From a virus: 51,507 nt of DNA. The translations under genes and the position numbers were made by a program. How positions within the stretch are numbered: position 1 is the stretch's first letter; every line of letters begins with the position of its first letter. The notes under the pieces are model-generated. The model was not told the DNA's origin and ran no database searches. It saw nothing but the letters and a program-made list of their open reading frames with translations. The stretch covers positions 1-51,507 of IMG/VR virus record IMGVR_UViG_3300037424_000314; one strand, 5' to 3'. This document shows positions 2,115-48,715 of the stretch, one piece after another.

Positions 2115-2143
2115 ATCATATCACGGTGAAACGTTACTGTAAA
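2115..2143 (-). promoter_or_regulatory. Sigma70-like promoter, TTTACA-N17-TATGAT (minus strand)
   Basis: The reverse complement of 2138-2143 is TTTACA and of 2115-2120 is TATGAT, with an exact 17-nt spacer. It overlaps the stop of the SNF2 gene and precedes a ~200-nt untranslated stretch before the ATG at 1910. Confidence 0.55.
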
Positions 2144-3648
2144 TCAGAGGCGTCAAATAAATCCTTACTTCGTAACGCTGCTGTCTTTTCCTCTTGTAAG
2201 ACCTTCAACCATTCTCCCCTGGTCCAGTTGGCAAGCTCGGTCTTTCTTTTCAAGGCTTTTAGTACCGCGCGGTCCACGGTTGGTTCACCCTTTGGCCCCG
2301 TCGCGATCGAGTCTACCACTGAGATGCTCTCGGCGGTCTGGCCCATGCGGTCAATCCGACCAATGGCCTGTATCCTCATCAACAGAGAATACGCACGGGA
2401 GAGAAACAACATGTTCGAGGCACGCTGCATGTTGAGGCCCATCCCACCAGCCGCAAGCTGCGAGACGAGGATGGCGTTCTCGTCATTGTTAAAGGCATGA
2501 AGAACCTTTTCTCTATTCGGTTGTGACATCCCACCGATCAACATGCCGACTGAGCGATACCCCCATACCTTTTGATTTGACCTCTTGACAATCTCATCTC
2601 TAATGGCTGTCGCCACCCGAGCGGTCTCAACCCTAAACCAGGTCCAGATGATGAGCCGGCCCTCTTGTCGCTCCGCAATATAGTTGAGCGCATCGTTGAT
2701 TTTCTCACTACCTACTACATTCTCCTCAACCTGACCGGCCGTGATCTCCATCAATCGAACAAGCTTAACACCAGCATTAGAGGCGGTGAGAATCTTCTGG
2801 TCTCCAGGCCCCTCACTGAGGATTGCGATGAGCTCGTCACGCATGTCTACATATACATTCCACGTCGTTTTCTCCAGGGGGACGAATCGTGGCGTTAAGG
2901 TGACAGGCGGGAGATCTAAGGCCTCTTTTTTTCTGCGTTGGAAATAGAACGGTCTGATCTTTTTGTATAGCTCAACCTGTGTCTCTTTCGCAAGTCCCAC
3001 CACCTGCTTACCCATGTACCCACCCATCTTACAATAACGTAGGCGAAAGACCCAACGACTGCAATCAATGATGTTGTAGTCAAGCACCAGAAATTGGGAG
3101 TACAGATCTTCAGGCGTGTTAGCGATCGGGGTCCCATTGAGGATGTACCTCCGCTTAAAGTATCGGGCCAGCTTGATGCAGGCCTTTGTGCGGGCGGCGC
3201 GCATCGCCTTGATGTATGAGCTCTCATCCATGACGATCATGGCATGCTCTTCCCTCGCCCATCTAATCAAACTAGCATGATGCCCTTCACTCCGAAGAAT
3301 GTCGTACGAGACGATGACCCATTGCCAATTCTTGTGCCACAGCTTGTGGTAAGAGTATGAGTCAAAGATGAACACTTGCTTCGGGTCAATGCCCCACGTG
3401 GCCAGCTCTCCAAACTCAGGGTCTGCCCACGCAAAACGGACGGGGGCCGGGCAAACCACCATAATGCGGGTTATCTCACCCATCTTCAAAAACTCTTTAG
3501 CCGCCTCAATGCAGACCCTAGTCTTACCCATCCCAGGCTCATCAAAAAGCGCAAAGTACTCATGAGCAAGAAATGCCTTGAGACCGGTCCGTTGGGTGGC
3601 GATGAGGGGCCTTACCTTTCCTGGTCGTGACATAAGATCGGTCGCCAA
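2134..3648 (-). CDS. SNF2/Rad54-family (SF2) DNA-dependent ATPase/helicase
   Basis: 504 aa. Motif I FDEPGMGKT, motif II VMDESSYIK, motif III LNGTPIAN, motif V LVSQLAAGGMGLNMQ, motif VI QAIGRIDRMGQT. Confidence 0.9.
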   Translation of the reverse strand: MATDLMSRPGKVRPLIATQRTGLKAFLAHEYFALFDEPGMGKTRVCIEAAKEFLKMGEITRIMVVCPAPVRFAWADPEFGELATWGIDPKQVFIFDSYSYHKLWHKNWQWVIVSYDILRSEGHHASLIRWAREEHAMIVMDESSYIKAMRAARTKACIKLARYFKRRYILNGTPIANTPEDLYSQFLVLDYNIIDCSRWVFRLRYCKMGGYMGKQVVGLAKETQVELYKKIRPFYFQRRKKEALDLPPVTLTPRFVPLEKTTWNVYVDMRDELIAILSEGPGDQKILTASNAGVKLVRLMEITAGQVEENVVGSEKINDALNYIAERQEGRLIIWTWFRVETARVATAIRDEIVKRSNQKVWGYRSVGMLIGGMSQPNREKVLHAFNNDENAILVSQLAAGGMGLNMQRASNMLFLSRAYSLLMRIQAIGRIDRMGQTAESISVVDSIATGPKGEPTVDRAVLKALKRKTELANWTRGEWLKVLQEEKTAALRSKDLFDASDLQ

Positions 3649-4061: not shown

Positions 4062-5243
4062 CTAGAAATTGACCATCATCAGCCGACCAACCGCGGTCTC
4101 AAGCTTCGTGCGCTCATCAGCGTACGGCGACTCCTGACTCAGTCGCGTGAGACCATTAACCATCCCCCACGGGGTATTGGGGGCACCGTCCACATCCTGA
4201 TGCTGCGTCTGCGTTAGCAGGTAAGCGTTCTCCAACTGCTTGCGGGTGATACCGAACCTGAACGAATAGACCTTGTCGCACACCTCTTCAAGGTCATCTC
4301 CGAGCTTGTAGGTCTGTAATCGCTTGATCTTGTCAGTGTCCTCCTTCGAGGAACGATCAAGCCAACCCTGTAACTCCCTGGACATCGCCTCCCACGCAAG
4401 TTGAAAGGACACGTTCACGTGGATGATCCGAAAGGTGGCCACGTTCTCCGCGCCCCAGACGATGTGGTTGCCGCACACGTACCGGTAGAGGAACCGCCAC
4501 ACCTTGAAGGCGTACCCAGGCACTTCGTAGTTGGAGATGAAGATCCCCCGCGCGAGTCCAGCGTCCGTCCCGTCCGAGATGCGATGTTCCTCATTCACGA
4601 GGAACGCGAACATGTCATGGTCCGAGGCGTAGAGACCCGCCGGGGAAATGTGGTCCCCCACCTTGATGGACAACATGCTGTCCTTCAACTTCAAGACGTC
4701 TTGTTTGGTGGCCACACGTGTTGGCCCACCGTGCATCGACGGACGCGCCGGCGGCACCCGCCAACCGCTGTCGTGTCGACAGACCTGCATGAGCTGCTCA
4801 ACGATCTGATAGTTCCAGATCCTGGTATAGGTCGGGGTGTTGAAGAACCGGAATTTCTCATGCCCGTTGTTCTTCAGGCCGATGACGGTCACCGGGTTGC
4901 TGGACCGATGCTCAGAGAGGTGATGGTTGAGCACGTCGCTGGTCAACGTGGGCGGCAGACCGCCAAGGTATTGGGCAGGCGCCCCGAGCTCTCCGCACAG
5001 CTGCCTGAACCCCCAATTCGTCATGCTCTGTACCCTATCATGGGTCTTCACAAACAGCTCACCGCTGGTGTCCGCCGTCAGATGCAGGTCCCTCAACGGC
5101 ATCGTCTGCTCAGTGCGGTTCTTGTAGTACTCAAAACATTGGTCGTACATCTCCTGCAGTGTCCAGAACCGCTCATCCGCCGGTCGTGTCGCCCACTGGT
5201 TTGACGCGGCGTACAGGTTTCTGCTCTTCGTGATCGTTGCCAT
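4062..5243 (-). CDS. DUF932-family protein (phage/plasmid-associated, function unknown)
   Basis: 393 aa from the ATG at 5243 (SD AAGGAGAT). The N-terminal signature NQWATRPADERFWTLQEM...NWGFRQLCGELGAPAQYLGGLP is typical of the DUF932 / TIGR03299-type family as I recall it. Confidence 0.75.
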   Translation of the reverse strand: MATITKSRNLYAASNQWATRPADERFWTLQEMYDQCFEYYKNRTEQTMPLRDLHLTADTSGELFVKTHDRVQSMTNWGFRQLCGELGAPAQYLGGLPPTLTSDVLNHHLSEHRSSNPVTVIGLKNNGHEKFRFFNTPTYTRIWNYQIVEQLMQVCRHDSGWRVPPARPSMHGGPTRVATKQDVLKLKDSMLSIKVGDHISPAGLYASDHDMFAFLVNEEHRISDGTDAGLARGIFISNYEVPGYAFKVWRFLYRYVCGNHIVWGAENVATFRIIHVNVSFQLAWEAMSRELQGWLDRSSKEDTDKIKRLQTYKLGDDLEEVCDKVYSFRFGITRKQLENAYLLTQTQHQDVDGAPNTPWGMVNGLTRLSQESPYADERTKLETAVGRLMMVNF

Positions 5244-5370
5244 GGTTCTTATCTCCTTTGATTGAACACTCACCACACCGATATTGGTCTGGTGCCACAC
5301 GATACAACGTCTTGAACTGTTGACAGCCGCAGCAGTAGCCGCTCAAACAGACAGGTTGCTGGACTCTCAT
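5173..5370 (-). CDS. Small Cys-rich protein (65 aa)
   Basis: The ATG at 5370 is preceded by AAAGGAGATAAC. Cys pattern CLSGYCCGCQQ...CGEC. The 3' part overlaps the DUF932 gene start by ~70 nt. Confidence 0.5.
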   Translation of the reverse strand: MRVQQPVCLSGYCCGCQQFKTLYRVAPDQYRCGECSIKGDKNHGNDHEEQKPVRRVKPVGDTTGG

Positions 5371-10693: not shown

Positions 10694-11095
10694 ATGGCAC
10701 GCATCTACACACCAACACAGGTCCTCACCACGTCACCAGTGGGACAGCTTCGTCTGATCCAGAACGCATTCACGGATCTGAAGGGTGGGACCGTGAAGGA
10801 GATCACTGAGCATGTGGTCAAGGGCGGTCTCGTCACCAAGCAGGATCCTACCCGAGTGGTCATGTTCTACATGATCCACCTCAGCAAGTTAGGTAAGGTC
10901 AAGGAGATCACGGAGACGGAGCTCGTCACACTGAGGGGTAATGGTAAGGATAAACTGACAGAGATTGTCACTGACCGCAAGGGAAAGAAATGGGCCAAGT
11001 TCTCTACCGATCCTGTTCGCGGTGGGGAGTATACAGGACCCATGACCAAGAAGACCGCTACGAAGAAGACCACTTCCAAAACCACCAGCCGCTAA
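10694..11095 (+). CDS. Small DNA-binding-like protein: winged-helix-like module (paralogue A) plus a Lys/Thr-rich basic tail
   Basis: The ATG is preceded by AAGGAGAATAACC. Residues 17-72 (GQLRLIQNAFTDLKGGTVKEITEHVVKGGLVTKQDPTRVVMFYMIHLSKLGKVKEI) align with segments of genes 47741..48343 and 48365..48715. The C-terminus is TKKTATKKTTSKTTSR. Confidence 0.65.
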   Translation: MARIYTPTQVLTTSPVGQLRLIQNAFTDLKGGTVKEITEHVVKGGLVTKQDPTRVVMFYMIHLSKLGKVKEITETELVTLRGNGKDKLTEIVTDRKGKKWAKFSTDPVRGGEYTGPMTKKTATKKTTSKTTSR

Positions 11096-30884: not shown

Positions 30885-31556
30885 ATGGCAACGATCAATG
30901 ACAGTGTAGACAACGTCGTAAAGCGGATGAACCGTAATGATGTGGATATCAATGCTTCGGCAATTACGTGGCTGTGTCAAGCGTATACTGACATCGCGTC
31001 GAGATACCCGTTTGTCGAGTTTCAACGGTACTTTAACCGGGCCACCGTACAGGGCCAGCGTGAGTACCCGCTTCCTGATGGTGTGCGTGCCGTATTGGCC
31101 GTAACCTTGCAGGATATTAGCATCACGAATTCAAACGGAACGCCGTTAACGAGGCGGTTGAAGAAGACTTCATTTAGGGAGGTGGTCAAGGCGAACTTTA
31201 ATGTGGCATCGGCACCATACCGCTATGCCAGATGGAATGATAAGCTATTCGCAGATCCTATCCCAGACCGTAGCACCTATAACATCGTCATCTATGCATG
31301 GGTCTATCCGGACGTGTCAGCACTAGAAAACACGACTGTGATGATCCCACCTGAATGGGTTGAGGTGATGGAGTGGGAGGCGGTGTGGCGCGGTCATAAT
31401 GAGCAGCTCGACTATGATGCAGCACGCCACGTCATGGAGAAGGTGATCGTGCCCATGACAACCTTAAGGTATCGTAACCTTAAGAGCTACATTGAGCTGC
31501 AGGATTGGGACGTCCCAGTAGCGCAACTTGTCCAACGGAGCACACCTGCCAAGTAA
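30885..31556 (+). CDS. Putative head-tail adaptor / tail-tubular-A-like protein (223 aa)
   Basis: Its size and position directly before the internal-protein genes resemble T7 gp11-type adaptors. No motif-level support. Confidence 0.35.
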   Translation: MATINDSVDNVVKRMNRNDVDINASAITWLCQAYTDIASRYPFVEFQRYFNRATVQGQREYPLPDGVRAVLAVTLQDISITNSNGTPLTRRLKKTSFREVVKANFNVASAPYRYARWNDKLFADPIPDRSTYNIVIYAWVYPDVSALENTTVMIPPEWVEVMEWEAVWRGHNEQLDYDAARHVMEKVIVPMTTLRYRNLKSYIELQDWDVPVAQLVQRSTPAK

Positions 31557-31566
31557 AGGAGAGTTT

Positions 31567-32028
31567 ATGGAAGCAGCCGTGCGTACTATCAGACAGCTCC
31601 AGACAGCTGAATTACCGCTGATCCTGGATATGGCCCACAAATTTTTTGAAGAGGCCAACGTCGGTGGGGAGTTCAATGATGAGATCTTCATCCTGTCTTG
31701 GGCTGGTTTCATGAAGTCAGGAAATGGGGCAATCTTTATCTTGAGCGAGAATGAGCAGATCAAGGGCGCAATTGGTGGCCTCACTTATCGGGAGATCAAC
31801 ACCGGTAAGTCGATGGCCTTGGAGACATTTTTCTACGTTGACCATGAGTATCGGGACAAGGGGGTTGGTGGACAACTGATCCATCAATTAGAGCAATGGG
31901 CCAAGTCAATGTTCTGCGTGAAGTTAATTATGGCCGCACTAATGAATAAGGACTTTCCAAACGTAGAGAAATTCTACGTTTCGAGGGGCTACAAGCATCT
32001 TGAGGTAAACTTTAGCAAGGAGCTCTAA
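31567..32028 (+). CDS. GNAT-family N-acetyltransferase
   Basis: 153 aa, SD AAGGAGAG. Acetyl-CoA motif A YRDKGVGGQLIHQLEQWAK (R/Q-x-x-G-x-G/A), with the preceding beta-strand pattern ALETFFYVDHE. Confidence 0.85.
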   Translation: MEAAVRTIRQLQTAELPLILDMAHKFFEEANVGGEFNDEIFILSWAGFMKSGNGAIFILSENEQIKGAIGGLTYREINTGKSMALETFFYVDHEYRDKGVGGQLIHQLEQWAKSMFCVKLIMAALMNKDFPNVEKFYVSRGYKHLEVNFSKEL

Positions 32029-40931: not shown

Positions 40932-41312
40932 TCAATCGATGATCCGGTCATCATCAGCGGGGTAGGGTCCAGTACCCAGTTTGGAGAACTGGTCAGTTAC
41001 AGTTCCTGGGGCATCCTTGATCTTACTGTAGATCTCAGTTTGGTCAAGGATGATGAACTCGACCTCCCCCGTCGATTTATCTGCCCGTGGGTGGGTCCGG
41101 TCAATCACGGTGAAGACGATCCCTGACAGACGTGTGAACAACACCCTCTCCCCTGGCTCAAACCCTCGCACGTCCGGGCCAACCGCCAGGATCTTACCGA
41201 CGGTTGTCTTGGACTTGGCCACGTCAGGGATGACCAGGCCTGCCTCTGACTTATAGACGAACGCGTCCCTGGCCACGATCATCTTGGTCCATACTGGTTC
41301 TAGTCGTTTCAT
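40932..41312 (-). CDS. GroES/Cpn10-like co-chaperonin
   Basis: 126 aa. LEPVWTKMIVARD...EAGLVIPDVAKSKTTVGKILAVGPDV...FEPGERVLFTRLSG...EFIILDQTEIYSKI follows the Cpn10 pattern (L-x-P-x-x-[DN]-[RK]-[VIL]-[LIV]-V...GI-x-IP...G-x-V-x-AVG...GD-x-V-x-[FY]...IL-x-x-x-DI-x-A). Confidence 0.6.
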   Translation of the reverse strand: MKRLEPVWTKMIVARDAFVYKSEAGLVIPDVAKSKTTVGKILAVGPDVRGFEPGERVLFTRLSGIVFTVIDRTHPRADKSTGEVEFIILDQTEIYSKIKDAPGTVTDQFSKLGTGPYPADDDRIID

Positions 41313-41644
41313 TCGTCAACCACCTCCCTGAATCGCCCGGTGGACGCCGCATCGTCAGCGGCCAGGTAATAGTCCCAGTCGGTTGCCAGCAGGTCCGTTT
41401 GACTTGGCAACCACGGGACAAAGGTCGGGACCGGGTCTGCCGTCTTCATCATGACATACGGTGAGAACACGCACACCGTGCCCTGGGGTATCCCAGTAGC
41501 TTGGGCCGTGTTCGAGTTGATGGGGATCCCCTCAGGATACCCCTTTTGAAGGGTGATGTACATGTCCCTTCCATTCCAGCCGCTACGCTGGACCTTGTGG
41601 CCGTTGCGCAGCTGGATGAGCGTCCACTCAAACCCACGTTTCAT
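41309..41644 (-). CDS. DUF2829-family protein (Tad2-like, candidate Thoeris anti-defence sponge)
   Basis: 111 aa. FEWTLIQLRNGHKVQRSGWNGRDMYITLQ...PWLPSQTDLLATDWDYY matches the DUF2829 hallmarks (G-[KH]-[KR]-V-x-R-x-GWNG...[IL]-x-LQ...W-x-[PA]-SQ-x-D-[LM]-LA-x-DW). ATGA overlaps on both sides. Confidence 0.75.
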   Translation of the reverse strand: MKRGFEWTLIQLRNGHKVQRSGWNGRDMYITLQKGYPEGIPINSNTAQATGIPQGTVCVFSPYVMMKTADPVPTFVPWLPSQTDLLATDWDYYLAADDAASTGRFREVVDE

Positions 41645-42777: not shown

Positions 42778-43125
42778 CTATAGTCCGGTGAAGTCTGGTG
42801 GAACCCAGTCTGGTCCTTTTAGGAGCTTACCGTGGCCGGTGTCCTGACCCTTGGTCATGTTCGACGTGTGCACACGATCCATTGCCTCATCCGCATCGAA
42901 CCCGTACAGGCACGCCGCACCGTAGCAGACGTACAACAGGTCCGCCACCGCGTCAATCACCGCCTCACGATCATGCTCCTGCATCCCAATGATCAGCTCG
43001 GTGGCCTCCTCAAGAATCAGACGCGCGCGCACGAAGCGCGTGTCCACGTGGTTATGATCAAGTGACAGGTCATACTTTAACATGAACTCTGCCACCTTTA
43101 CCTGATTCGGTCCTATGCTATACAT
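42778..43125 (-). CDS. MazG-like all-alpha nucleoside triphosphate pyrophosphohydrolase
   Basis: 115 aa. RARLILEEATELIIGM...AVIDAVADLLYVCYGAACLYGFDADEAMDRVHTSNMTK shows the E-x-x-E...D-x-x-D metal-binding helix pattern of MazG/HisE-type NTP-PPases. Confidence 0.7.
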   Translation of the reverse strand: MYSIGPNQVKVAEFMLKYDLSLDHNHVDTRFVRARLILEEATELIIGMQEHDREAVIDAVADLLYVCYGAACLYGFDADEAMDRVHTSNMTKGQDTGHGKLLKGPDWVPPDFTGL

Positions 43126-43128
43126 GTA

Positions 43129-43491
43129 TTACTTCCTCCATTGAACGATCTGATTCAGCACATTGTCTAACGTGCCTGAATGAAGAAGCAGAACTTCCCA
43201 GTCATGCCCACTTCTGACCTGCCACTGAACCGGCTTATGCTGATCAAGCACCCTAATGAAATAGGCCCTACCGCCATTTTCACGGTATAGGTCCGCCATG
43301 GTTTTAAGCTGTAACTTGGTGGGGTCGTTGTACTCACGTTTCACCTCTACCCATGTTGTGCTACCCTTATAGGTGTACGTGGAGTCGGGTAAGGCCGCCA
43401 CATACGGGTTGGATAGCTTAAAGATCACAATACCATCGAACATCTCCTTTGCTCGTGTACGCATCTTGTTAGACCAGAACGATTCATTCAT
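43129..43491 (-). CDS. PD-(D/E)xK-type nuclease (VRR-NUC/resolvase-like, tentative)
   Basis: The ATG at 43491 lies 7 nt after GGAGGT and overlaps the polymerase stop (ATGA). LPDSTYTYKGSTTWVEVKRE fits D-x(n)-E-x-K. Confidence 0.5.
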   Translation of the reverse strand: MNESFWSNKMRTRAKEMFDGIVIFKLSNPYVAALPDSTYTYKGSTTWVEVKREYNDPTKLQLKTMADLYRENGGRAYFIRVLDQHKPVQWQVRSGHDWEVLLLHSGTLDNVLNQIVQWRK

Positions 43492-45239
43492 GCGGCTAAC
43501 CTCCATGAGTCGCCCTTCTTAACCTTCCAAATGATGGGTACCCTTAATTCCATCTCCTGTTCGTTGAACACCTCCTCTATCTTCTTGATGTCGGCATCTG
43601 GGTGCACCGTGCCGTCCACCTCATCATGCACCGTCATCTGCATCTTAAACCCTAGGTTCTTCATCACTGAGTAAATCTTAACGATCTTAAGCTTCATTAG
43701 ATCAGCCGCCGTGCCCTGGATCATAGCATTCAGCGCGCTGTGCAAACGATCCCGAAGTGGGTAACGACGTCTTCGTCCCAATAGTGTCTTAGCAAAACCC
43801 CGTCGTTTTACGATTTTGATGACATCCCACATAAGTCGTGATGCCTCTGGAAACATCGCTTCATACTCTTTGTTGATCTCTTCGCCACGTTCCAGGGTAC
43901 AACCAAGCTGAGCACACACCTTGTCTATGCCCATGCCATAGATCTTCCCGAAGTTCCAATTCTTTGCCGATTTCCTGACCCATCCTATCAGCTTGGCTAC
44001 CTCCTCATGAAAGTCGCAGTCAGGATCATCGACATACGCCTTAATCAAGCGAGCGCTACGGCTGTAATGCGCAAAGATTCTGAATTCTATCTGACTCGCG
44101 TCGGCGGAGAGCCAGTAACCACCATCAGGGATAAAGAGCTCACGGATGATCCACTGTCTGGTGGACTCATCTTGCCGCTCCTCCGAGAAGACCTGCTGAA
44201 TGTTGACGCTCGAGCTCGAGTACCGTCCGGTGATGGTGCCATACTCGTTGCCGCGCAGCTGGTTTAGGTTGTAGTACAACCGGCCGTTGACCTGCTCACG
44301 CCAGTATTTATCGAGATACTTAGAGCACAGGCTGCTGATCTGCCGCGCCGCCAGTGCCATGCCAATGACGCGGGATTGTTTCTCAGTTGAGGCCCCCATC
44401 ATTAACAGGAGCGATTGCTCCGTGTATGAGTCCTCTCCACCGGCGGTAAACATTGGGACTGAAAGTCCCATCACCCTGAATAATTTATTCAGGCTAGTTG
44501 CCTTGTTGGGGCTAACCTGGAATCCTACCGCGTTTGAGATTTGTGTGCATAACCAAGCGTGTTTCTGTTTTGCCTCGACGCGCCAGCGCGCCAGCTTTGG
44601 CATGTCAAGCCGGGCGCCTTGGCGCTCCATGAACAGGGTTGGGTAGGCGCAGGCATCTTCAAGGTTTGCGACCTCAATTAACTCCTCTGCCCGGATAAGT
44701 GGTCGGGCATGCTCGTACAGTTCATAGGTTAGTCGGGCATCGTTAGTACAGTATGGACCTACCTCCCATGCAGGCATCACATTGATCGGCATCCTTGATG
44801 GCATGACCTTCTTGCGTTTCTTCAAGAAGTCAAAGGCCAAGGACTCTAGATCGAACTTACGTCGCTGCTCATTGAGCAGGGCATAGTAGTACTGAACACA
44901 TCTAGGTTTACACCCTAACTGTTCGAGATCAACCCCAACCTTTAACATCATCGAGATGTCAAAGCTCGGATTGACCAATGCGACCTCCTTACCCTTGAGG
45001 TTGTCGTTTGCCCAACGCGAGACAGCACCAGGGTCCATGTTACCACCGCCCTGGTGACCCCACCCAAAGTAATACTCCAAGCCAGGAGCATAGACACCGA
45101 AGCCGACGGGCTTGTCGTGGCCGCGCCAGTTCAAACCCGTGGTCTCAGTATCCAGACCGATGCACTTGACGCCGGCTAGGTTGGGTGGCTCCATCTTCAC
45201 CCTCGGCGTATTTACCGTGAAGTCAAGTTTGGCCTGCAT
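43488..45239 (-). CDS. Family-A DNA polymerase with a 3'-5' exonuclease domain
   Basis: 583 aa. Exo I GLDTETTGL, Pol motif A LSADASQIEFRIFAHYS, motif B RKSAKNWNFGKIYGMG, motif C MTVHDEVDG. Confidence 0.92.
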   Translation of the reverse strand: MQAKLDFTVNTPRVKMEPPNLAGVKCIGLDTETTGLNWRGHDKPVGFGVYAPGLEYYFGWGHQGGGNMDPGAVSRWANDNLKGKEVALVNPSFDISMMLKVGVDLEQLGCKPRCVQYYYALLNEQRRKFDLESLAFDFLKKRKKVMPSRMPINVMPAWEVGPYCTNDARLTYELYEHARPLIRAEELIEVANLEDACAYPTLFMERQGARLDMPKLARWRVEAKQKHAWLCTQISNAVGFQVSPNKATSLNKLFRVMGLSVPMFTAGGEDSYTEQSLLLMMGASTEKQSRVIGMALAARQISSLCSKYLDKYWREQVNGRLYYNLNQLRGNEYGTITGRYSSSSVNIQQVFSEERQDESTRQWIIRELFIPDGGYWLSADASQIEFRIFAHYSRSARLIKAYVDDPDCDFHEEVAKLIGWVRKSAKNWNFGKIYGMGIDKVCAQLGCTLERGEEINKEYEAMFPEASRLMWDVIKIVKRRGFAKTLLGRRRRYPLRDRLHSALNAMIQGTAADLMKLKIVKIYSVMKNLGFKMQMTVHDEVDGTVHPDADIKKIEEVFNEQEMELRVPIIWKVKKGDSWRLAA

Positions 45240-46114
45240 TATTGATCCGTCAGCAGGAGATTAAAGGCTTCCTTACGCGGGTGCGTAAGTACCTTAGCAA
45301 AGGTAAACCATGGCTGTGGGAAATCAACGGTCTTACCTCGATCATTGAGAATGACTTGACCATCATTAATCGGTAACGATGGGGCATTGAAGATGGCAGC
45401 AAGCTCTGGTGGAGGAGGAGAGAACATACGGTCACTGCCATAACATGAGATGTCTTGCAGGCCACTGCACATCTCACCAAGCCTGTCTAGGTCTCTCTCA
45501 TACATGTGGGCTGAGCCGAGGTTGAACTGTAAGAAACCTGGTAAGCAACCAAGATGAAAGCAAAGAAGGTTCATGATTTGGGAGAATACATAAAAGTCAT
45601 AGGGCAAACCAAGGAAGATGTCCGAGCTTCGCATGGTGACGATCGTGTTCAGGAAGTCTTCACGTCGAATGAACTGGACGTTCAGGGTACACATGACGTC
45701 CTTGGTCGGCATCCATGGGGTTTCCCAGATACCGGCCACCGCCTGCCTCGTCTGAGGGTCCTCCTTTAGCTTCCCAAGCACATATGGGAGTGCCACCTGA
45801 AGTCTCGGCCCGTACGCGCCCCACATCTTCATACCGTCATCAGAGAATTCGACGATTCGTTTGTTGTAATTTCCTATGGACGGTGCGTCGTCGTAACCAA
45901 AGAGGATCCACAGAAACTCCGCAACCATAAACCTGTAGTTCAAGTCGCGGGTGGGATGGTACAGGATATTGTGCATAGGTTCATTCACGCGAAAGGATGA
46001 TCCAAGAATCTCTCGCGTTGGGATGCCACGTGGGCCGGCTGGCGTGCCGTCATAAATGATTTGGCTGGCAAGACCACGATATGCCGCGTTAAAGTAACCG
46101 CAATTGAGATGCAT
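45239..46114 (-). CDS. Thymidylate-synthase-fold pyrimidine C5-transferase with the dCMP-specifying Asp (dCMP hydroxymethylase/methylase-like)
   Basis: 291 aa from the ATG at 46114; the ORF extends to 46165. Motifs AEFLWIL, YGPRLQ, TRQAVAGIW, nucleophile VMCTLNVQFIRRE, MRSSDIFLGLPYD (Asp codon GAC at 45596-45598, where TS has Asn) and LGSAHMY. TAATG overlap with the polymerase gene. Confidence 0.8.
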   Translation of the reverse strand: MHLNCGYFNAAYRGLASQIIYDGTPAGPRGIPTREILGSSFRVNEPMHNILYHPTRDLNYRFMVAEFLWILFGYDDAPSIGNYNKRIVEFSDDGMKMWGAYGPRLQVALPYVLGKLKEDPQTRQAVAGIWETPWMPTKDVMCTLNVQFIRREDFLNTIVTMRSSDIFLGLPYDFYVFSQIMNLLCFHLGCLPGFLQFNLGSAHMYERDLDRLGEMCSGLQDISCYGSDRMFSPPPPELAAIFNAPSLPINDGQVILNDRGKTVDFPQPWFTFAKVLTHPRKEAFNLLLTDQ

Positions 46115-47027
46115 GGTTGTGCTCCATAGCCTGTTTGAATAGTTTAAGGTATTCCGTGGCTTCATGATGTTTGAAGCGATGGTAGAACTGCGGGTGTGGC
46201 AAACAAGTACATGGGATATCTTGCTGTACTAGCATCTTAGCGGCCTGCTGCCCAAGTGCAAGGACCCGTTTAAGTTTCTTCAGGTCACCAATGATAGGCT
46301 TCATGATGCGTGGCGAACCATCCTTACGGTATGCGTTGGTCAGGTAGTAGTTGTGCCCGATCCCAAGACGCATCAGGGTATTGATCAGGTACGCACTTGA
46401 CCCAGCCGTGGAGAAGAATGGCAGGTCATACATCCGATGGTTGCTCATCTCCCCAACGATTAGGGTCTCAGACCAACTTGGCCCTATCCCAAGGTCAAAA
46501 GGAATCTGCGAGTCGCGCGCCGCGATGAACTCAATGCGCTTCCTTATTAAGTCCACGACCTCAGGGTCAAACGGGTCGATGACTTCCCATCCACTAAGCT
46601 TAAAGCTACGATCTTGGTACAATTCATAGATATGGACCAGTTCTTCCATCTTCTGGAGATATTCAGTCTCGCGTCGTTTCTTCCAGGTCTTAACAACTGC
46701 CTTAAGTGGCGCCGCGCAGATCAGACCAAAGCCATGGCTAAAGACGATATGGTCGATGATGTGCTGCCCAATCTCACCAAGATTGTCACGGTTACGTTTG
46801 ACTGGGCCATACGTGCGTTCACCCAGGTGAAGGCGGTCATGGATACAAAAGGGGTAGGTCAGGGCCTTCACGGCGTAGTGCTCAAATAATGATGGGGCAT
46901 CTGGTGGTAGGCCCTCATGCATGCGATTAACGTGCTTGGTGTTAAACGCACGCATAATGTACTCTTCGAGTTTATTAGCCAGTGTCGTTTTACCGGTGCA
47001 GTCACAACCTTCAAGAACAATCTGCAA
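46089..47027 (-). CDS. Fusion protein: thymidylate-kinase-like P-loop dNMP kinase (N-terminal) + family-4-like uracil-DNA-glycosylase-fold domain (C-terminal)
   Basis: 312 aa. The TTG start at 47027 follows GGGAGGTG. N-terminal domain: IVLEGCDCTGKTT (P-loop) and IHDRLHLGERTYG (DR motif). C-terminal domain from ~aa 170: TLIVGEMSNH...LPFFSTAGSSAYLINTLMRLGI...YYLTNAYRK...VLALGQQAA...CLPHPQFY, which tracks UDG family-4 motifs (IVGE-x-PG, PF-x-G-x-AG, Y-x-TN, LG, HPS). Confidence 0.75.
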   Translation of the reverse strand: MQIVLEGCDCTGKTTLANKLEEYIMRAFNTKHVNRMHEGLPPDAPSLFEHYAVKALTYPFCIHDRLHLGERTYGPVKRNRDNLGEIGQHIIDHIVFSHGFGLICAAPLKAVVKTWKKRRETEYLQKMEELVHIYELYQDRSFKLSGWEVIDPFDPEVVDLIRKRIEFIAARDSQIPFDLGIGPSWSETLIVGEMSNHRMYDLPFFSTAGSSAYLINTLMRLGIGHNYYLTNAYRKDGSPRIMKPIIGDLKKLKRVLALGQQAAKMLVQQDIPCTCLPHPQFYHRFKHHEATEYLKLFKQAMEHNHASQLRLL

Positions 47028-47757
47028 GGGTCACCTCCCAGAGGTTATTGCGCGAGTAGTCCGGGTACAGCGGGGCGAACATGACTGACATGACCTCCCC
47101 GCCATAATACTGCGCAAGATTTTCAAAGATGATGAGCTCATCAGGATTCATGGCCTTGGTGATCTCAGGCTTGCTGGCAAACGTGCCCCAACGCTTTTTA
47201 ACCTTAAGACCTGCCTCCTCAATAAGGTCATTCAACTCCTCTGCAGTATACTCATGGATGTGGTTGACTGCCGCGGCGCCATTAAATATGGGCGTTGATA
47301 GATAAAGGGTAGAACGCTGGTCCATGAGTGATTTGATGTTGGTCAACAGGGTAAGACCATCCTCAGTCTCCATGTGTTCAATCACCTCAAAGCAGGTGAT
47401 CGTATCATAGGGCCCACGCAGCTCAACGAAGTCTGCGATGAAGTCAAACTCCCACCAGATAGATGCCCATGACGGGCAGATGGATCCCTCAGGTTGTTTG
47501 TTTAAATCAATGCCATTGTACTCGGTAGGGATAAGGCTTTTGTTCCCCATCAGGACACGGAGTAACGGCTGATCTTGCCCGCAACCTACATCAAGGATCC
47601 TCTTCCCATAGGCACGGTTCTTATTAATGAACCCCCATCGGAAGAAGTGGGCCGCATAGTCACGGTGTACGTTGTACCCGTAATGTGCGGCCTTAAGCTG
47701 GGTCTTGTCAAACCGACGCGCTGGACGCGTACGACCTGACCTAGTCGGTTGGGGCAT
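47011..47757 (-). CDS. Class-I SAM-dependent methyltransferase (not a recognisable DNA MTase)
   Basis: 248 aa from the ATG at 47757, 7 nt after AAGGAGG. Motif I RILDVGCGQDQPL, post-I GIDLN, YDTITCFEVIEHM. No DPPY/NPPY or PCQ motifs. Confidence 0.8.
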   Translation of the reverse strand: MPQPTRSGRTRPARRFDKTQLKAAHYGYNVHRDYAAHFFRWGFINKNRAYGKRILDVGCGQDQPLLRVLMGNKSLIPTEYNGIDLNKQPEGSICPSWASIWWEFDFIADFVELRGPYDTITCFEVIEHMETEDGLTLLTNIKSLMDQRSTLYLSTPIFNGAAAVNHIHEYTAEELNDLIEEAGLKVKKRWGTFASKPEITKAMNPDELIIFENLAQYYGGEVMSVMFAPLYPDYSRNNLWEVTLADCS

Positions 47758-48343
47758 CAAGGACCTCCTTATCTCGGTGGAGAACAATGTAGTATCTGAC
47801 GATGCGCTCAGGTTCTTGACGAGTGGTTAACTTCCCACCCTTGACCACATCTGCAGTAAGTTCGGCGATGGTTGCAGGACCCAGGCGTTTCAACGAGTCG
47901 AACACCACACCCCGTTGACCGCCACCGGTCTTGGTACCTTCCTTCAAGATGTATCTCTTCTGCAGAACGTCTGAGGTCTTCTTGTTGGGCTGGATGTAGC
48001 TGTCAGGCATCTCCCCAGTCTTAAGAAAGATCTTGAATCTCTCTACCCGCTTATCGTGTCGGTCCTTGATCTTCTGGTCAACCGCATTGAAGTAGTGTTG
48101 CAGCCATGTAAGCTGTACGAAGCTGGCAACGACAGGCACGTAAATTTCAGATGGGCAGGTGAGTGGCATTTCAAGGTCGTGGTGTATGAGAAACCGTTGG
48201 GCGGATGATGCACTGAGCAGCTTCAATTTCGCAACCGTGACGGAGATCCCACGAGCACTAATGAGAAGCTCGTAGGATCCCTTCACGTAGTAAAGATCCC
48301 CGTCCTTCTCACGAAGGACGGGTTCAATAGGTTGATTTTTCAT
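47741..48343 (-). CDS. Two-domain protein: novel N-terminal domain + winged-helix-like module (paralogue B)
   Basis: 200 aa. Residues 142-196 (GQRGVVFDSLKRLGPATIAELTADVVKGGKLTTRQEPERIVRYYIVLHRDKEVLDA) align with genes 10694..11095 and 48365..48715. Confidence 0.65.
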   Translation of the reverse strand: MKNQPIEPVLREKDGDLYYVKGSYELLISARGISVTVAKLKLLSASSAQRFLIHHDLEMPLTCPSEIYVPVVASFVQLTWLQHYFNAVDQKIKDRHDKRVERFKIFLKTGEMPDSYIQPNKKTSDVLQKRYILKEGTKTGGGQRGVVFDSLKRLGPATIAELTADVVKGGKLTTRQEPERIVRYYIVLHRDKEVLDAPTD

Positions 48344-48364: not shown

Positions 48365-48715
48365 TTAGGCTGCCTTGACTGCCTCGACGGTGCCGGCCTT
48401 CTTCATGCTGGTCATGTAGAAACTGACCACCGACTTCGCGGATTGTTTCGTCTGCAGCTTTCCCTCGATCTCTTTTGTGATCTCGTCGATCGTGGCCTCT
48501 CCCTTCTTCTTCAGGGCATTGACGATCAGCTCGACCTGGCCACCTGTCTTGAACTTTACCTCCTTGGTGGTGAGTTTGAACTTCGTGGCGACCTTGGGCT
48601 CCTTGGCTTCCTTTGCCCCCTTCTTTCCTGCAGCAGCGTCAACATCGGTCTCAGCTGCCTTCTTGCTGACCTTCTCCGCAGGTGCTGCGGCTGCCTTGCT
48701 TTGTTTCTTTGCCAT
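48365..48715 (-). CDS. Histone-H1-like small basic protein: Lys/Ala-rich tail + winged-helix-like module (paralogue C)
   Basis: 116 aa, SD AAAGGAGAG. N-terminal tail MAKKQSKAAAAPAEKVSKKAAETDVDAAAGKKGAKEAKEPK. Module GQVELIVNALKKKGEATIDEITKEIEGKLQTKQSAKSVVSFYMTSMKKAGTVEAV. Confidence 0.7.
   Translation of the reverse strand: MAKKQSKAAAAPAEKVSKKAAETDVDAAAGKKGAKEAKEPKVATKFKLTTKEVKFKTGGQVELIVNALKKKGEATIDEITKEIEGKLQTKQSAKSVVSFYMTSMKKAGTVEAVKAA

Follow-up and report, generated by a model that had tools for sequence, protein, structure and literature searches.

Base replacement in phage genomes defeats restriction enzymes as well as CRISPR nucleases, and phage base modification has been a source of reagents such as the T4 beta-glucosyltransferase, the 5-hydroxymethylcytosine (5hmC) carbamoyltransferase and 5-methylcytosine (5mC)-selective deaminases. 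In T-even phages, deoxycytidine (dC) is replaced by 5-hydroxymethyl-dC (5hm-dC) through a pathway comprising gp42, the gp1 deoxynucleoside monophosphate (dNMP) kinase, the gp56 dCTPase and the cd deaminase. In XP12, C replacement is complete and the 5-methyl-dC pathway relies on a dCMP methylase, a 5m-dCTP deaminase and a dihydrofolate reductase (DHFR). Other described systems are the 5hmC carbamoyltransferase clusters found by MetaGPA (Yang et al. 2021, PMC8670742) and the thymidine hypermodification pathways of M6, ViI, SP10, PhiW-14 and PaMx11.

The locus described here lies in a 51,507-nt stretch of viral DNA (IMG/VR record IMGVR_UViG_3300037424_000314, positions 1 to 51,507), hereafter the window, which is a JGI metagenome contig in its full length and displays the hallmarks of a tailed phage (SU10-type portal and adaptor, capsid gene, K1-lyase-type tailspike). 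It associates a thymidylate synthase (TS)-fold enzyme, a nucleotide kinase fused to a uracil-DNA glycosylase (UDG) fold and an S-adenosylmethionine (SAM)-dependent methyltransferase (MTase) with the gene of a family-A DNA polymerase (PolA). On balance, this module is somewhat likely to replace dC by 5hm-dC before replication and to add a further SAM-dependent methylation, all pathway steps being inferred from sequence and structure prediction. For its first part, the replacement of dC by 5hm-dC through the successive action of a MazG-like enzyme, the TS-fold enzyme and the kinase, strong homology and diagnostic residues argue with good confidence.

Coupled gene block and predicted dCMP hydroxymethylase

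The genes concerned follow one another on the minus strand, from 48343 down to 42778, in the order given below together with the evidence used for each.

47741-48343, minus strand: 200-aa protein of unknown function; overlap with the MTase start, ribosome-binding site (RBS), kept in close relatives
47011-47757, minus strand: class-I SAM-dependent MTase of 248 aa, from a phage-specific family; Pfam Methyltransf_23, AlphaFold2 model, Foldseek
46503-47027, minus strand: N-terminal domain of the 312-aa fusion (about residues 1-175), P-loop dNMP kinase of the YorR/thymidylate-kinase type, TTG start; profile against the PDB, Foldseek, PHROG 761
46089-46502, minus strand: C-terminal domain of the fusion (about residues 176-312 and stop), minimal family-4/UdgX-like UDG fold; Foldseek, domain profile against the PDB
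45239-46114, minus strand: TS-fold enzyme of 291 aa, predicted dCMP hydroxymethylase (5hm-dCMP synthase); PF00303, active-site signature, reading of RBS and start
45698-45700, minus strand: Asp139 codon of the TS-fold enzyme (E. coli ThyA Leu143), an acidic residue that marks a hydroxymethyl, not a methyl, product; alignment read-out
45596-45598, minus strand: Asp173 codon of the TS-fold enzyme (E. coli ThyA Asn177, T4 gp42 Asp179), selector of cytosine versus uracil; alignments, hmmalign, coordinate counted from the start at 46114
43488-45239, minus strand: PolA with 3'-5' exonuclease; Pfam DNA_pol_A (188.7 bits) and DNA_pol_A_exo1
43129-43506, minus strand: VRR-NUC-like nuclease
42778-43125, minus strand: MazG/PRA-PH all-alpha NTP pyrophosphohydrolase, predicted dCTPase; Pfam PRA-PH, PHROG 671

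Direct reading of the junctions indicates that all four genes upstream of PolA are joined by stop-to-start overlaps, with Shine-Dalgarno sequences before the starts. The MTase ATG (47757) is overlapped by the gene at 47741-48343 and preceded by AAGGAGG; the MTase stop (47011) overlaps the TTG start of the fusion at 47027, which follows a GGAGG; and the fusion stop (46089) overlaps the TS-like ATG at 46114, with a GGAG located 8 nt upstream (an alternative in-frame ATG at 46165 is a less likely start). Finally, a TAATG at 45239 is common to the TS-like stop and the PolA start, which share one base. The overlaps at 47011-47027 and 46089-46114 and the TAATG run-on into the polymerase gene, all reported in an earlier note on this DNA, are thus real, but the coupled block is larger than the three genes proposed there since the overlap of 47741-48343 with the MTase start extends it to four genes plus PolA. 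This arrangement is far beyond chance and recurs in five GenBank phage records and in most of 80 IMG/VR loci (see below).

The TS-like protein matches Pfam Thymidylat_synt (PF00303) with 67.5 bits for a cut-off of 24.3, and its nearest solved relative is the CMP hydroxymethylase MilA (E = 4e-21), true thymidylate synthases being found at ca. 1e-9. It was aligned with E. coli ThyA, which aligns as expected, and with T4 gp42, SPO1 gp29, the XP12 dCMP methylase and relatives from five phages. Equivalents of the catalytic Cys146, Arg166, Asp169, His207 and Tyr209 (ThyA numbering) are all found, with the nucleophile, Cys142, located within VMCTLNVQF. The LGLPYD motif puts Asp173 in the column of E. 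coli Asn177, T4 gp42 Asp179 and MilA Asp186, where SPO1 and E. coli have Asn; Asn at position 177 corresponds to uracil and Asp to cytosine, and the N177D change results in dCMP specificity (PMC8670742). Asp139, within TKDVMC, occupies position 143, which is Asp in T4, MilA and SPO1, Asn in XP12 and Leu in E. coli. At this position Leu shuts out water and a methyl group is formed, while Asp or Glu leads to a hydroxymethyl (PMC13326640). Equivalents of Ser167 and Arg126, which signal deoxyribose rather than ribose as substrate (PMC5175136), are both present (MRSSD and DPQTRQ).

Over a ten-residue signature (E58 Y94 D143 C146 T147 R166 D169 D177 H207 Y209) the protein is identical to T4 gp42, for an overall identity of ca. 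22%, and differs from the XP12 methylase (N143/P147), the SPO1 dUMP hydroxymethylase (N147/N177) and E. coli ThyA (L143/H147/N177). Based on this read-out and on the discriminating positions above, the protein is predicted to be a dCMP hydroxymethylase. Asn at position 169 (D169N) marks the flavin-dependent 5-hydroxy-dCMP synthases of the RB69 gp48 / DLP3 gp80 type (PMC13326640), an identity that was dropped because Asp is kept here (Asp165). The TS-fold motifs, the nucleophile, LGLPYD and the Asp codon at 45596-45598 noticed earlier were all retrieved by Pfam, alignment and coordinate count, and sequence alignments and hmmalign place that Asp at the base-selecting position, opposite T4 gp42, as had been claimed. 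With regard to the product, for which both 5hm-dC and 5-methyl-dC had been proposed, the dCMP-directed activity stands, with residues 143, 169, 167 and 126 favouring 5hm-dC and 5-methyl-dC now disfavoured.

That the enzyme is a dCMP methylase as in XP12, giving DNA with 5mC for cytosine, appears improbable. Asp177 is common to XP12, five of the seven tested deaminase-linked metavirome Asp177 synthases made 5m-dCMP (bioRxiv 10.1101/2024.12.05.627091), and N177D/N229D mutants of true thymidylate synthases methylate dCMP (cited in PMC8670742). However, XP12 has Asn143/Pro147 where the window enzyme has Asp143/Thr147 as in T4 gp42 and MilA, and the closest solved relative is a hydroxymethylase. 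A DHFR gene adjoins the XP12 synthase, whereas the scanned window ORFs (open reading frames) revealed no DHFR, nor any glycosyltransferase, carbamoyltransferase, deaminase or TET/JBP. An XP12-type identity was thus disfavoured on the residues Asp143/Thr147 and on the DHFR result. The scan also agrees with the remark of the earlier note that a glucosyltransferase, as found in T-even phages, is missing.

A thymidine pathway, involving an ordinary thymidylate synthase or dUMP hydroxymethylase together with a thymidylate kinase, corresponds to the GenBank names of the homologous genes in two cultured relatives, AXL3 (NC_071036, locus L001) and PW916 (OL960029, locus L002), namely thymidylate synthase, deoxyuridylate hydroxymethyltransferase and thymidylate kinase; the authors of AXL3 read the module as a thymidylate pathway and left the base unnamed (PMC7504290). 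Relatives also carry a dCMP deaminase, which would suit such a pathway. It is nevertheless highly improbable, as position 177 is Asp versus Asn in E. coli ThyA and SPO1 gp29, and the deaminases that accompany Asp177 synthases use modified dCTP as substrate (bioRxiv 10.1101/2024.12.05.627091). Furthermore, AXL3 encodes a separate ThyX to make dTMP, and of 37 restriction enzymes tried on its virion DNA just two, TasI (AATT) and Tru1I (TTAA), were able to cut, while the 35 with G/C in their sites failed (PMC7504290). The AXL3 and PW916 TS homologues carry D143, T147 and D177, so that their thymidine-type annotations in GenBank are probably wrong. A literature search found no later identification of the AXL3 base.

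The MazG-like gene noticed earlier just past the polymerase gene, at 42778-43125, is borne out by a Pfam PRA-PH match of 49.7 bits (cut-off 21.3) and by PHROG 671, and its product is homologous (E = 7e-9) to the gp30 NTP pyrophosphohydrolase of AXL3, which lies inside the AXL3 module. On metavirome contigs enriched by experiment for modified cytosine, the leading neighbours of Asp177 synthases include PRA-PH and PolA, and a deaminase belongs to this neighbourhood too (bioRxiv 10.1101/2024.12.05.627091; PMC8670742). The proposal that this enzyme removes canonical dCTP fits that published co-occurrence, its dCTP specificity being a prediction.

Kinase-UDG fusion and predicted nucleotide pathway

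The reading of the gene at 46089-47027 as a thymidylate-kinase-like domain fused to a UDG fold is supported by an AlphaFold model built with 16 homologues (predicted local distance difference test, pLDDT, 89.5; predicted template modelling score 0.87), for which Foldseek retrieved YorR (kinase-like, from the SPbeta prophage) and thymidylate kinases with the N-terminal part, and UdgX as well as the T. maritima and Sulfolobus family-4 UDGs with the C-terminal part. A profile of the fusion family matches YorR in the PDB (4e-15) and the kinase domain falls into PHROG 761 ("thymidylate kinase"); the protein is below the Pfam and NCBIfam thresholds for thymidylate kinases. Invariant motifs of this domain are a P-loop, EGxDxxGKT (EGCDCTGKT in the window), and a DR motif, DRxxxGE..Y (DRLHLGERTYG), both features of kinases acting on free dNMPs. 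The domain is predicted to be a 5hm-dCMP kinase.

The profile of the C-terminal domain matches UdgX in the PDB (1.2e-4), with GEQPG paired to GE(M/Q)SN, LPFVG to LPFF and VTNA to LTNA, and two homologues (P0018 and P0019) carry PF03167. The motif-A Glu, the stacking Phe, the Asn and the motif-B His-Pro are invariant or nearly so, HP(Q) being invariant. The domain has only ca. 135 residues, and the segment facing the KRRIH loop of UdgX is short and gap-rich. No invariant Cys, and hence no four-Cys ligand set for a [4Fe-4S] cluster, was found in the alignment, which makes an Fe-S cluster unlikely. UDG domains that are fused to phage family-A polymerases or encoded next to them display uracil glycosylase activity in base-modifying phages of the SP-15/YerA41 type (bioRxiv 10.1101/2025.03.26.645540), so the simplest reading of the fusion is a 5hm-dCMP kinase joined to a repair glycosylase. 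Considering its fold, its motifs and this precedent, we lean towards a repair role for the UDG domain, directed at uracil-type bases and outside the modification chemistry.

Alternatively, the fusion would work on DNA as a cytosine analogue of the 5-HMUDK/aGPT-Pplase system, flipping 5hmC and phosphorylating its hydroxymethyl before a further group is installed. A fusion of a P-loop kinase with a base-flipping fold kept in 35 of 80 loci, the DNA-level enzymes of the extended module (DNMT-like, for C5-cytosine DNA methyltransferase, see below) and the 5-HMUDK precedent (PMC8989533, PMC11472151) would be in line with such a role, which is nonetheless quite improbable. The DR motif is that of thymidylate kinases, YorR and these kinases are the closest relatives, and a tblastn search with the fusion (E <= 1e-3) retrieved none of the phages with a known 5-HMUDK. 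The UDG domain is optional, being present in 35 of the 45 loci with a kinase and missing from the other 10 (the podovirus MW202510, for instance, has the kinase alone), and ca. 20 TS-positive loci show no kinase. Moreover, the solved enzyme of the aGPT-Pplase type (PUGT) is a helical bundle and not a UDG fold, the uracil-reading Asn of family-4 UDGs is kept in the domain, and the PolA-attached UDG domains mentioned above are active on uracil. The earlier claim that the thymidine pathways based on 5-HMUDK/aGPT-Pplase do not match this locus agrees with Asp177, with the tblastn result and with a fold other than that of PUGT; an identity as thymidine hypermodification was dropped on account of Asp177, the thymidylate-kinase-type kinase and the UDG fold.

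Coming back to 5hm-dC replacement, the module would constitute a nucleotide-pool pathway that exchanges dC for a C5-modified cytosine and that is expressed together with the replicative polymerase. MazG/PRA-PH would convert dCTP to dCMP, both keeping out canonical dCTP and feeding the TS-fold enzyme, which would in turn produce 5-hydroxymethyl-dCMP from dCMP and methylene-tetrahydrofolate. In this reaction the Cys142 thiolate would add to C6 and Asp173 would read cytosine N3/N4, while Asp139 would let water attack the exocyclic methylene to yield a hydroxymethyl rather than a methyl. The thymidylate-kinase-like domain would then give 5hm-dCDP and a host NDP kinase the triphosphate, for incorporation by the phage PolA. 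The fused UDG domain would probably remove uracil-type bases from phage DNA, either dU or the 5hmU that results from deamination of 5hmC nucleotides.

Methyltransferase family and its genomic neighbourhood

The MTase matches Methyltransf_23 (51 bits) and Methyltransf_12 in Pfam and nothing else; weak matches concern UbiG and, among solved structures, UbiG, Hen1, JHAMT and CmoB. Foldseek with its AlphaFold2 model (pLDDT 89.6) retrieved small-molecule O-, C- and N-MTases as top matches, several of which act on hydroxyls (UbiG, StiD O-MT, Hen1, CmoM). No DNA-MTase family was matched in Pfam, the PDB neighbours by sequence and by fold being small-molecule or RNA MTases, and the protein does not belong with the C5 or N6/N4 DNA MTases as defined by PC/ENV or (D/N)PP(Y/F) motifs. 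This is consistent with the class-I SAM MTase devoid of DNA-MTase motifs that had been described at this place.

In a collection of 5.8 billion proteins the family accounts for 1,137 clusters at E <= 1e-3, many of them on contigs of 30-70 kb, and its invariant motifs are QPTR, RRFDKTQL, VHRDYAAHFFRW, NHxHEY and SRNNxW. One member (L024:6407-7702) contains a LAGLIDADG homing-endonuclease domain inside the MTase ORF. This domain, which could represent an intein-like or a free-standing endonuclease insertion, follows HRDY..H..RW at a variable site that holds shorter insertions in other members.

The neighbourhood of the MTase was scored in 80 IMG/VR viral loci using profiles built for this analysis. 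Within 4 kb, 64 loci have a TS homologue, 53 a MazG, 52 a dCMP-type deaminase and 45 a kinase, which makes the MTase at least as central to the module as the kinase. Of the 67 TS ORFs found in these loci, 63 carry the T4 signature D143-C146-T147-D169-D177. Among GenBank phages, the MTase was confined to AXL3 (two records), PW916 and two Manatee Spring genomes, and in each of them genes for an NTP pyrophosphohydrolase, a kinase and a TS homologue come after it; the order MTase-(MazG)-kinase-TS-(deaminase)-PolA is shared by these phages and metagenome contigs. Two arbitrarily picked metagenomic homologues (ca. 50% identity) display primase - UvrD - ... - MTase - fusion - TS - deaminase - PolA - ... 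- PRA-PH. MTase and TS remain adjacent in genomes of both sipho- and podovirus type, even where MTase identity drops to 30-50%, and close relatives of the window repeat its gene order exactly, likewise without deaminase. A megablast search of the region against GenBank phages gave no match. The module described earlier is thus indeed coupled to a DNA polymerase gene, but it is not unique to this contig and belongs to a large family of environmental phages.

A dCMP-type deaminase lies between the TS homologue and PolA in most relatives (L009, L010, L014, L016, L021, L024, L070, L080). In the window and its closest relatives (L012, L013, L092-L094), which have none, the TS stop overlaps the PolA start (45239-45243 in the window).

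In three loci a C5-cytosine DNA methylase domain (PF00145, E = 1e-16 to 1e-22) and the MTase make up the N- and C-terminal halves, respectively, of one and the same ORF. These MTase-PF00145 fusions are located in IMG/VR loci as follows.

L018:5207-7735, fusion of a PF00145 domain with the MTase
L028:5786-7720, fusion of a PF00145 domain with the MTase
L031:5615-7711, fusion of a PF00145 domain with the MTase

The same DNMT-like subfamily is found as a separate adjoining gene in ca. 14 more MTase loci (e.g. L030, L077, L079, L083, L089, L091), and these repeated fusions and adjacencies indicate a functional link of the MTase to cytosine C5 chemistry. Gene linkage, gene fusion and the lack of any other tailoring enzyme in the window lead us to propose, tentatively, that the MTase methylates a cytosine derivative. 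More tentatively still, the family would turn 5hmC into a methylated base new to DNA, either 5-methoxymethylcytosine or N4-methyl-5-hydroxymethylcytosine. The most economical reaction would be O-methylation of the 5-hydroxymethyl to 5-methoxymethylcytosine, N4-methylation being equally open, and the reaction could take place on the free nucleotide or on DNA. In the same kind of neighbourhood, a carbamoyltransferase from metaviromes modifies the oxygen of the 5-hydroxymethyl group (PMC8670742), which provides a direct precedent for a group-transfer enzyme with an accessory role in an Asp177-TS setting. A literature search retrieved no description of this MTase family, nor of methylated 5hmC or 5-methoxymethylcytosine in phage DNA. 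The further step outside described pathways that the earlier note had foreseen is therefore plausible for the MTase, which is tightly linked to the synthase and which no described pathway accounts for, but weak for the kinase-UDG fusion given its free-dNMP kinase features and its optional UDG domain.

A different explanation is that the phage DNA contains plain 5hmC and that the target of the MTase is an RNA, a metabolite or a protein of either host or phage, its position reflecting merely that of an early gene. The fold is generic class-I, none of its close relatives being informative, the MTase is absent from DSL-LC01 although fusion, TS and deaminase are all found there, and in the TS-lacking MTase loci the neighbours are heterogeneous, with no TET/JBP beside the MTase. 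We regard this explanation as unlikely, since a TS homologue is found within 4 kb in 64 of the 80 loci across virus types, with the T4 signature in nearly all TS ORFs, since the MTase is translationally coupled to the block, and since its fusion with, or adjacency to, a C5-cytosine DNA methylase-like enzyme is seen repeatedly. In addition, the invariant residues specific to the family (Arg, His, Asn, Asp, Tyr, Trp) have polar or aromatic side chains, which would suit a nucleotide pocket.

Several points weigh against 5hm-dC replacement followed by methylation. Regarding the MTase, 14 of the 80 loci, several of them truncated, lack a TS homologue within 7 kb, its Foldseek neighbours in the PDB and BFVD are O-, N- and C-MTases alike and give no clue to the substrate, and the DNMT-like gene of relatives has no counterpart in the window. 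For the earlier steps, the position-143 rule reflects a correlation among the few enzymes that have been characterised, the dCTP specificity of the window MazG is not readable from its sequence, BLAST gave no alignment of this protein with the T4 gp56 dCTPase, and the dCMP deaminase of many relatives is missing from the window. The restriction resistance of AXL3 would equally fit a guanine modification, and a literature search retrieved no biochemical or nucleoside data on the contig or on any member of the MTase-module family.

Other genes of the window and comparison with known systems

The 200-aa protein encoded at 47741-48343 (minus strand) has a C-terminal domain of ca. 55 aa in common with the products of 48365-48715 (minus strand) and 10694-11095 (plus strand), with pairwise E values of 2e-9 and 2e-8; the N-terminal half of the 48365-48715 protein is Lys/Ala-rich and histone-H1-like. 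None of the three matches Pfam, the 200-aa protein has no match in PHROGs or NCBIfam either, and it displays no similarity to gp32 of AXL3.

Elsewhere in the window, the search of the structural half for tailoring enzymes yielded only a GNAT-family acetyltransferase (31528-32028, plus strand; PF00583, E = 1.3e-10), which is surrounded by genes for tail and structural proteins at a distance of 13 kb from the nucleotide module. Such enzymes act in some thymidine hypermodification pathways, but nothing ties this gene to the module. A Tad2-like (Thoeris anti-defence 2) protein (41309-41644, minus strand; PF11195, E = 1.6e-21) is encoded between an amidase endolysin and a Cpn10/GroES-like gene and is kept in the close relatives L092-L094. 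Finally, the minus-strand genes at 78-866, 1202-1693, 2134-3648 and 4062-5300 encode Pam3 gp34-like and gp33-like proteins, a SNF2-family helicase and a DUF932 protein, respectively; they would precede the primase if the contig were circular, and the Pam3-like pair recurs in relatives L009 and L092.

The MTase family is common in viral metagenomes and has only two cultured representatives, AXL3 and PW916, whose availability makes the question directly testable. If the MTase acts on 5hmC, more than 1,000 MTase clusters would point to a new natural DNA base in globally distributed environmental phages, the restriction resistance of Stenotrophomonas phage AXL3 would find an explanation, and an enzyme would become available for tagging 5hmC with a methyl or a SAM-analogue group; the DNMT-like partner of some members would then suggest an additional step at the DNA level. 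The present reading would also correct the labels thymidylate synthase and thymidylate kinase given to module genes in GenBank.

Compared to known systems, the thymidine hypermodification pathways resemble the module in having a TS-fold hydroxymethylase, a P-loop kinase and tailoring enzymes clustered with replication genes. They differ in starting from dUMP (Asn177) and in using a DNA kinase and helical-bundle transferases, whereas the window has a cytosine-type synthase, a thymidylate-kinase-like kinase and a UDG fold. With family-4 UDGs, UdgX and the PolA-linked UDGs of the SP-15/YerA41 type, the fusion shares the fold, the kept Glu, Phe, Asn and HP residues and the genomic coupling to PolA. 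In contrast to these, its domain is limited to ca. 135 residues, lacks conserved Fe-S cysteines and the KRRIH loop, and is joined to a nucleotide kinase and not to a polymerase.

Systems directed at cytosine are closer. The XP12 pathway has in common an Asp177 TS homologue next to a deaminase (as in relatives of the window) and a broad restriction resistance, but combines Asn143/Pro147 with DHFR and is devoid of both the SAM MTase and the kinase-UDG fusion. In the MetaGPA clusters, an Asp177 TS, PRA-PH and PolA are likewise accompanied by one extra group-transfer enzyme, which is a carbamoyltransferase there and, in the window, a SAM MTase with a putative role on 5hmC; their dCMP-type deaminase is matched in relatives of the module and not in the window itself. 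With T-even phages the module shares the pre-replicative nucleotide-pool strategy, a TS-fold enzyme equal to gp42 at all diagnostic active-site positions examined, and the presence of a dNMP kinase and an NTP pyrophosphohydrolase alongside. The kinase is however of the thymidylate-kinase/YorR type and not gp1-like, the pyrophosphohydrolase is PRA-PH/MazG and not gp56-like, and a SAM MTase and a UDG domain are found instead of glucosyltransferases. Overall, the module is most likely a variant of known 5hmC-replacement systems, whose new part is the linked, uncharacterised SAM MTase.

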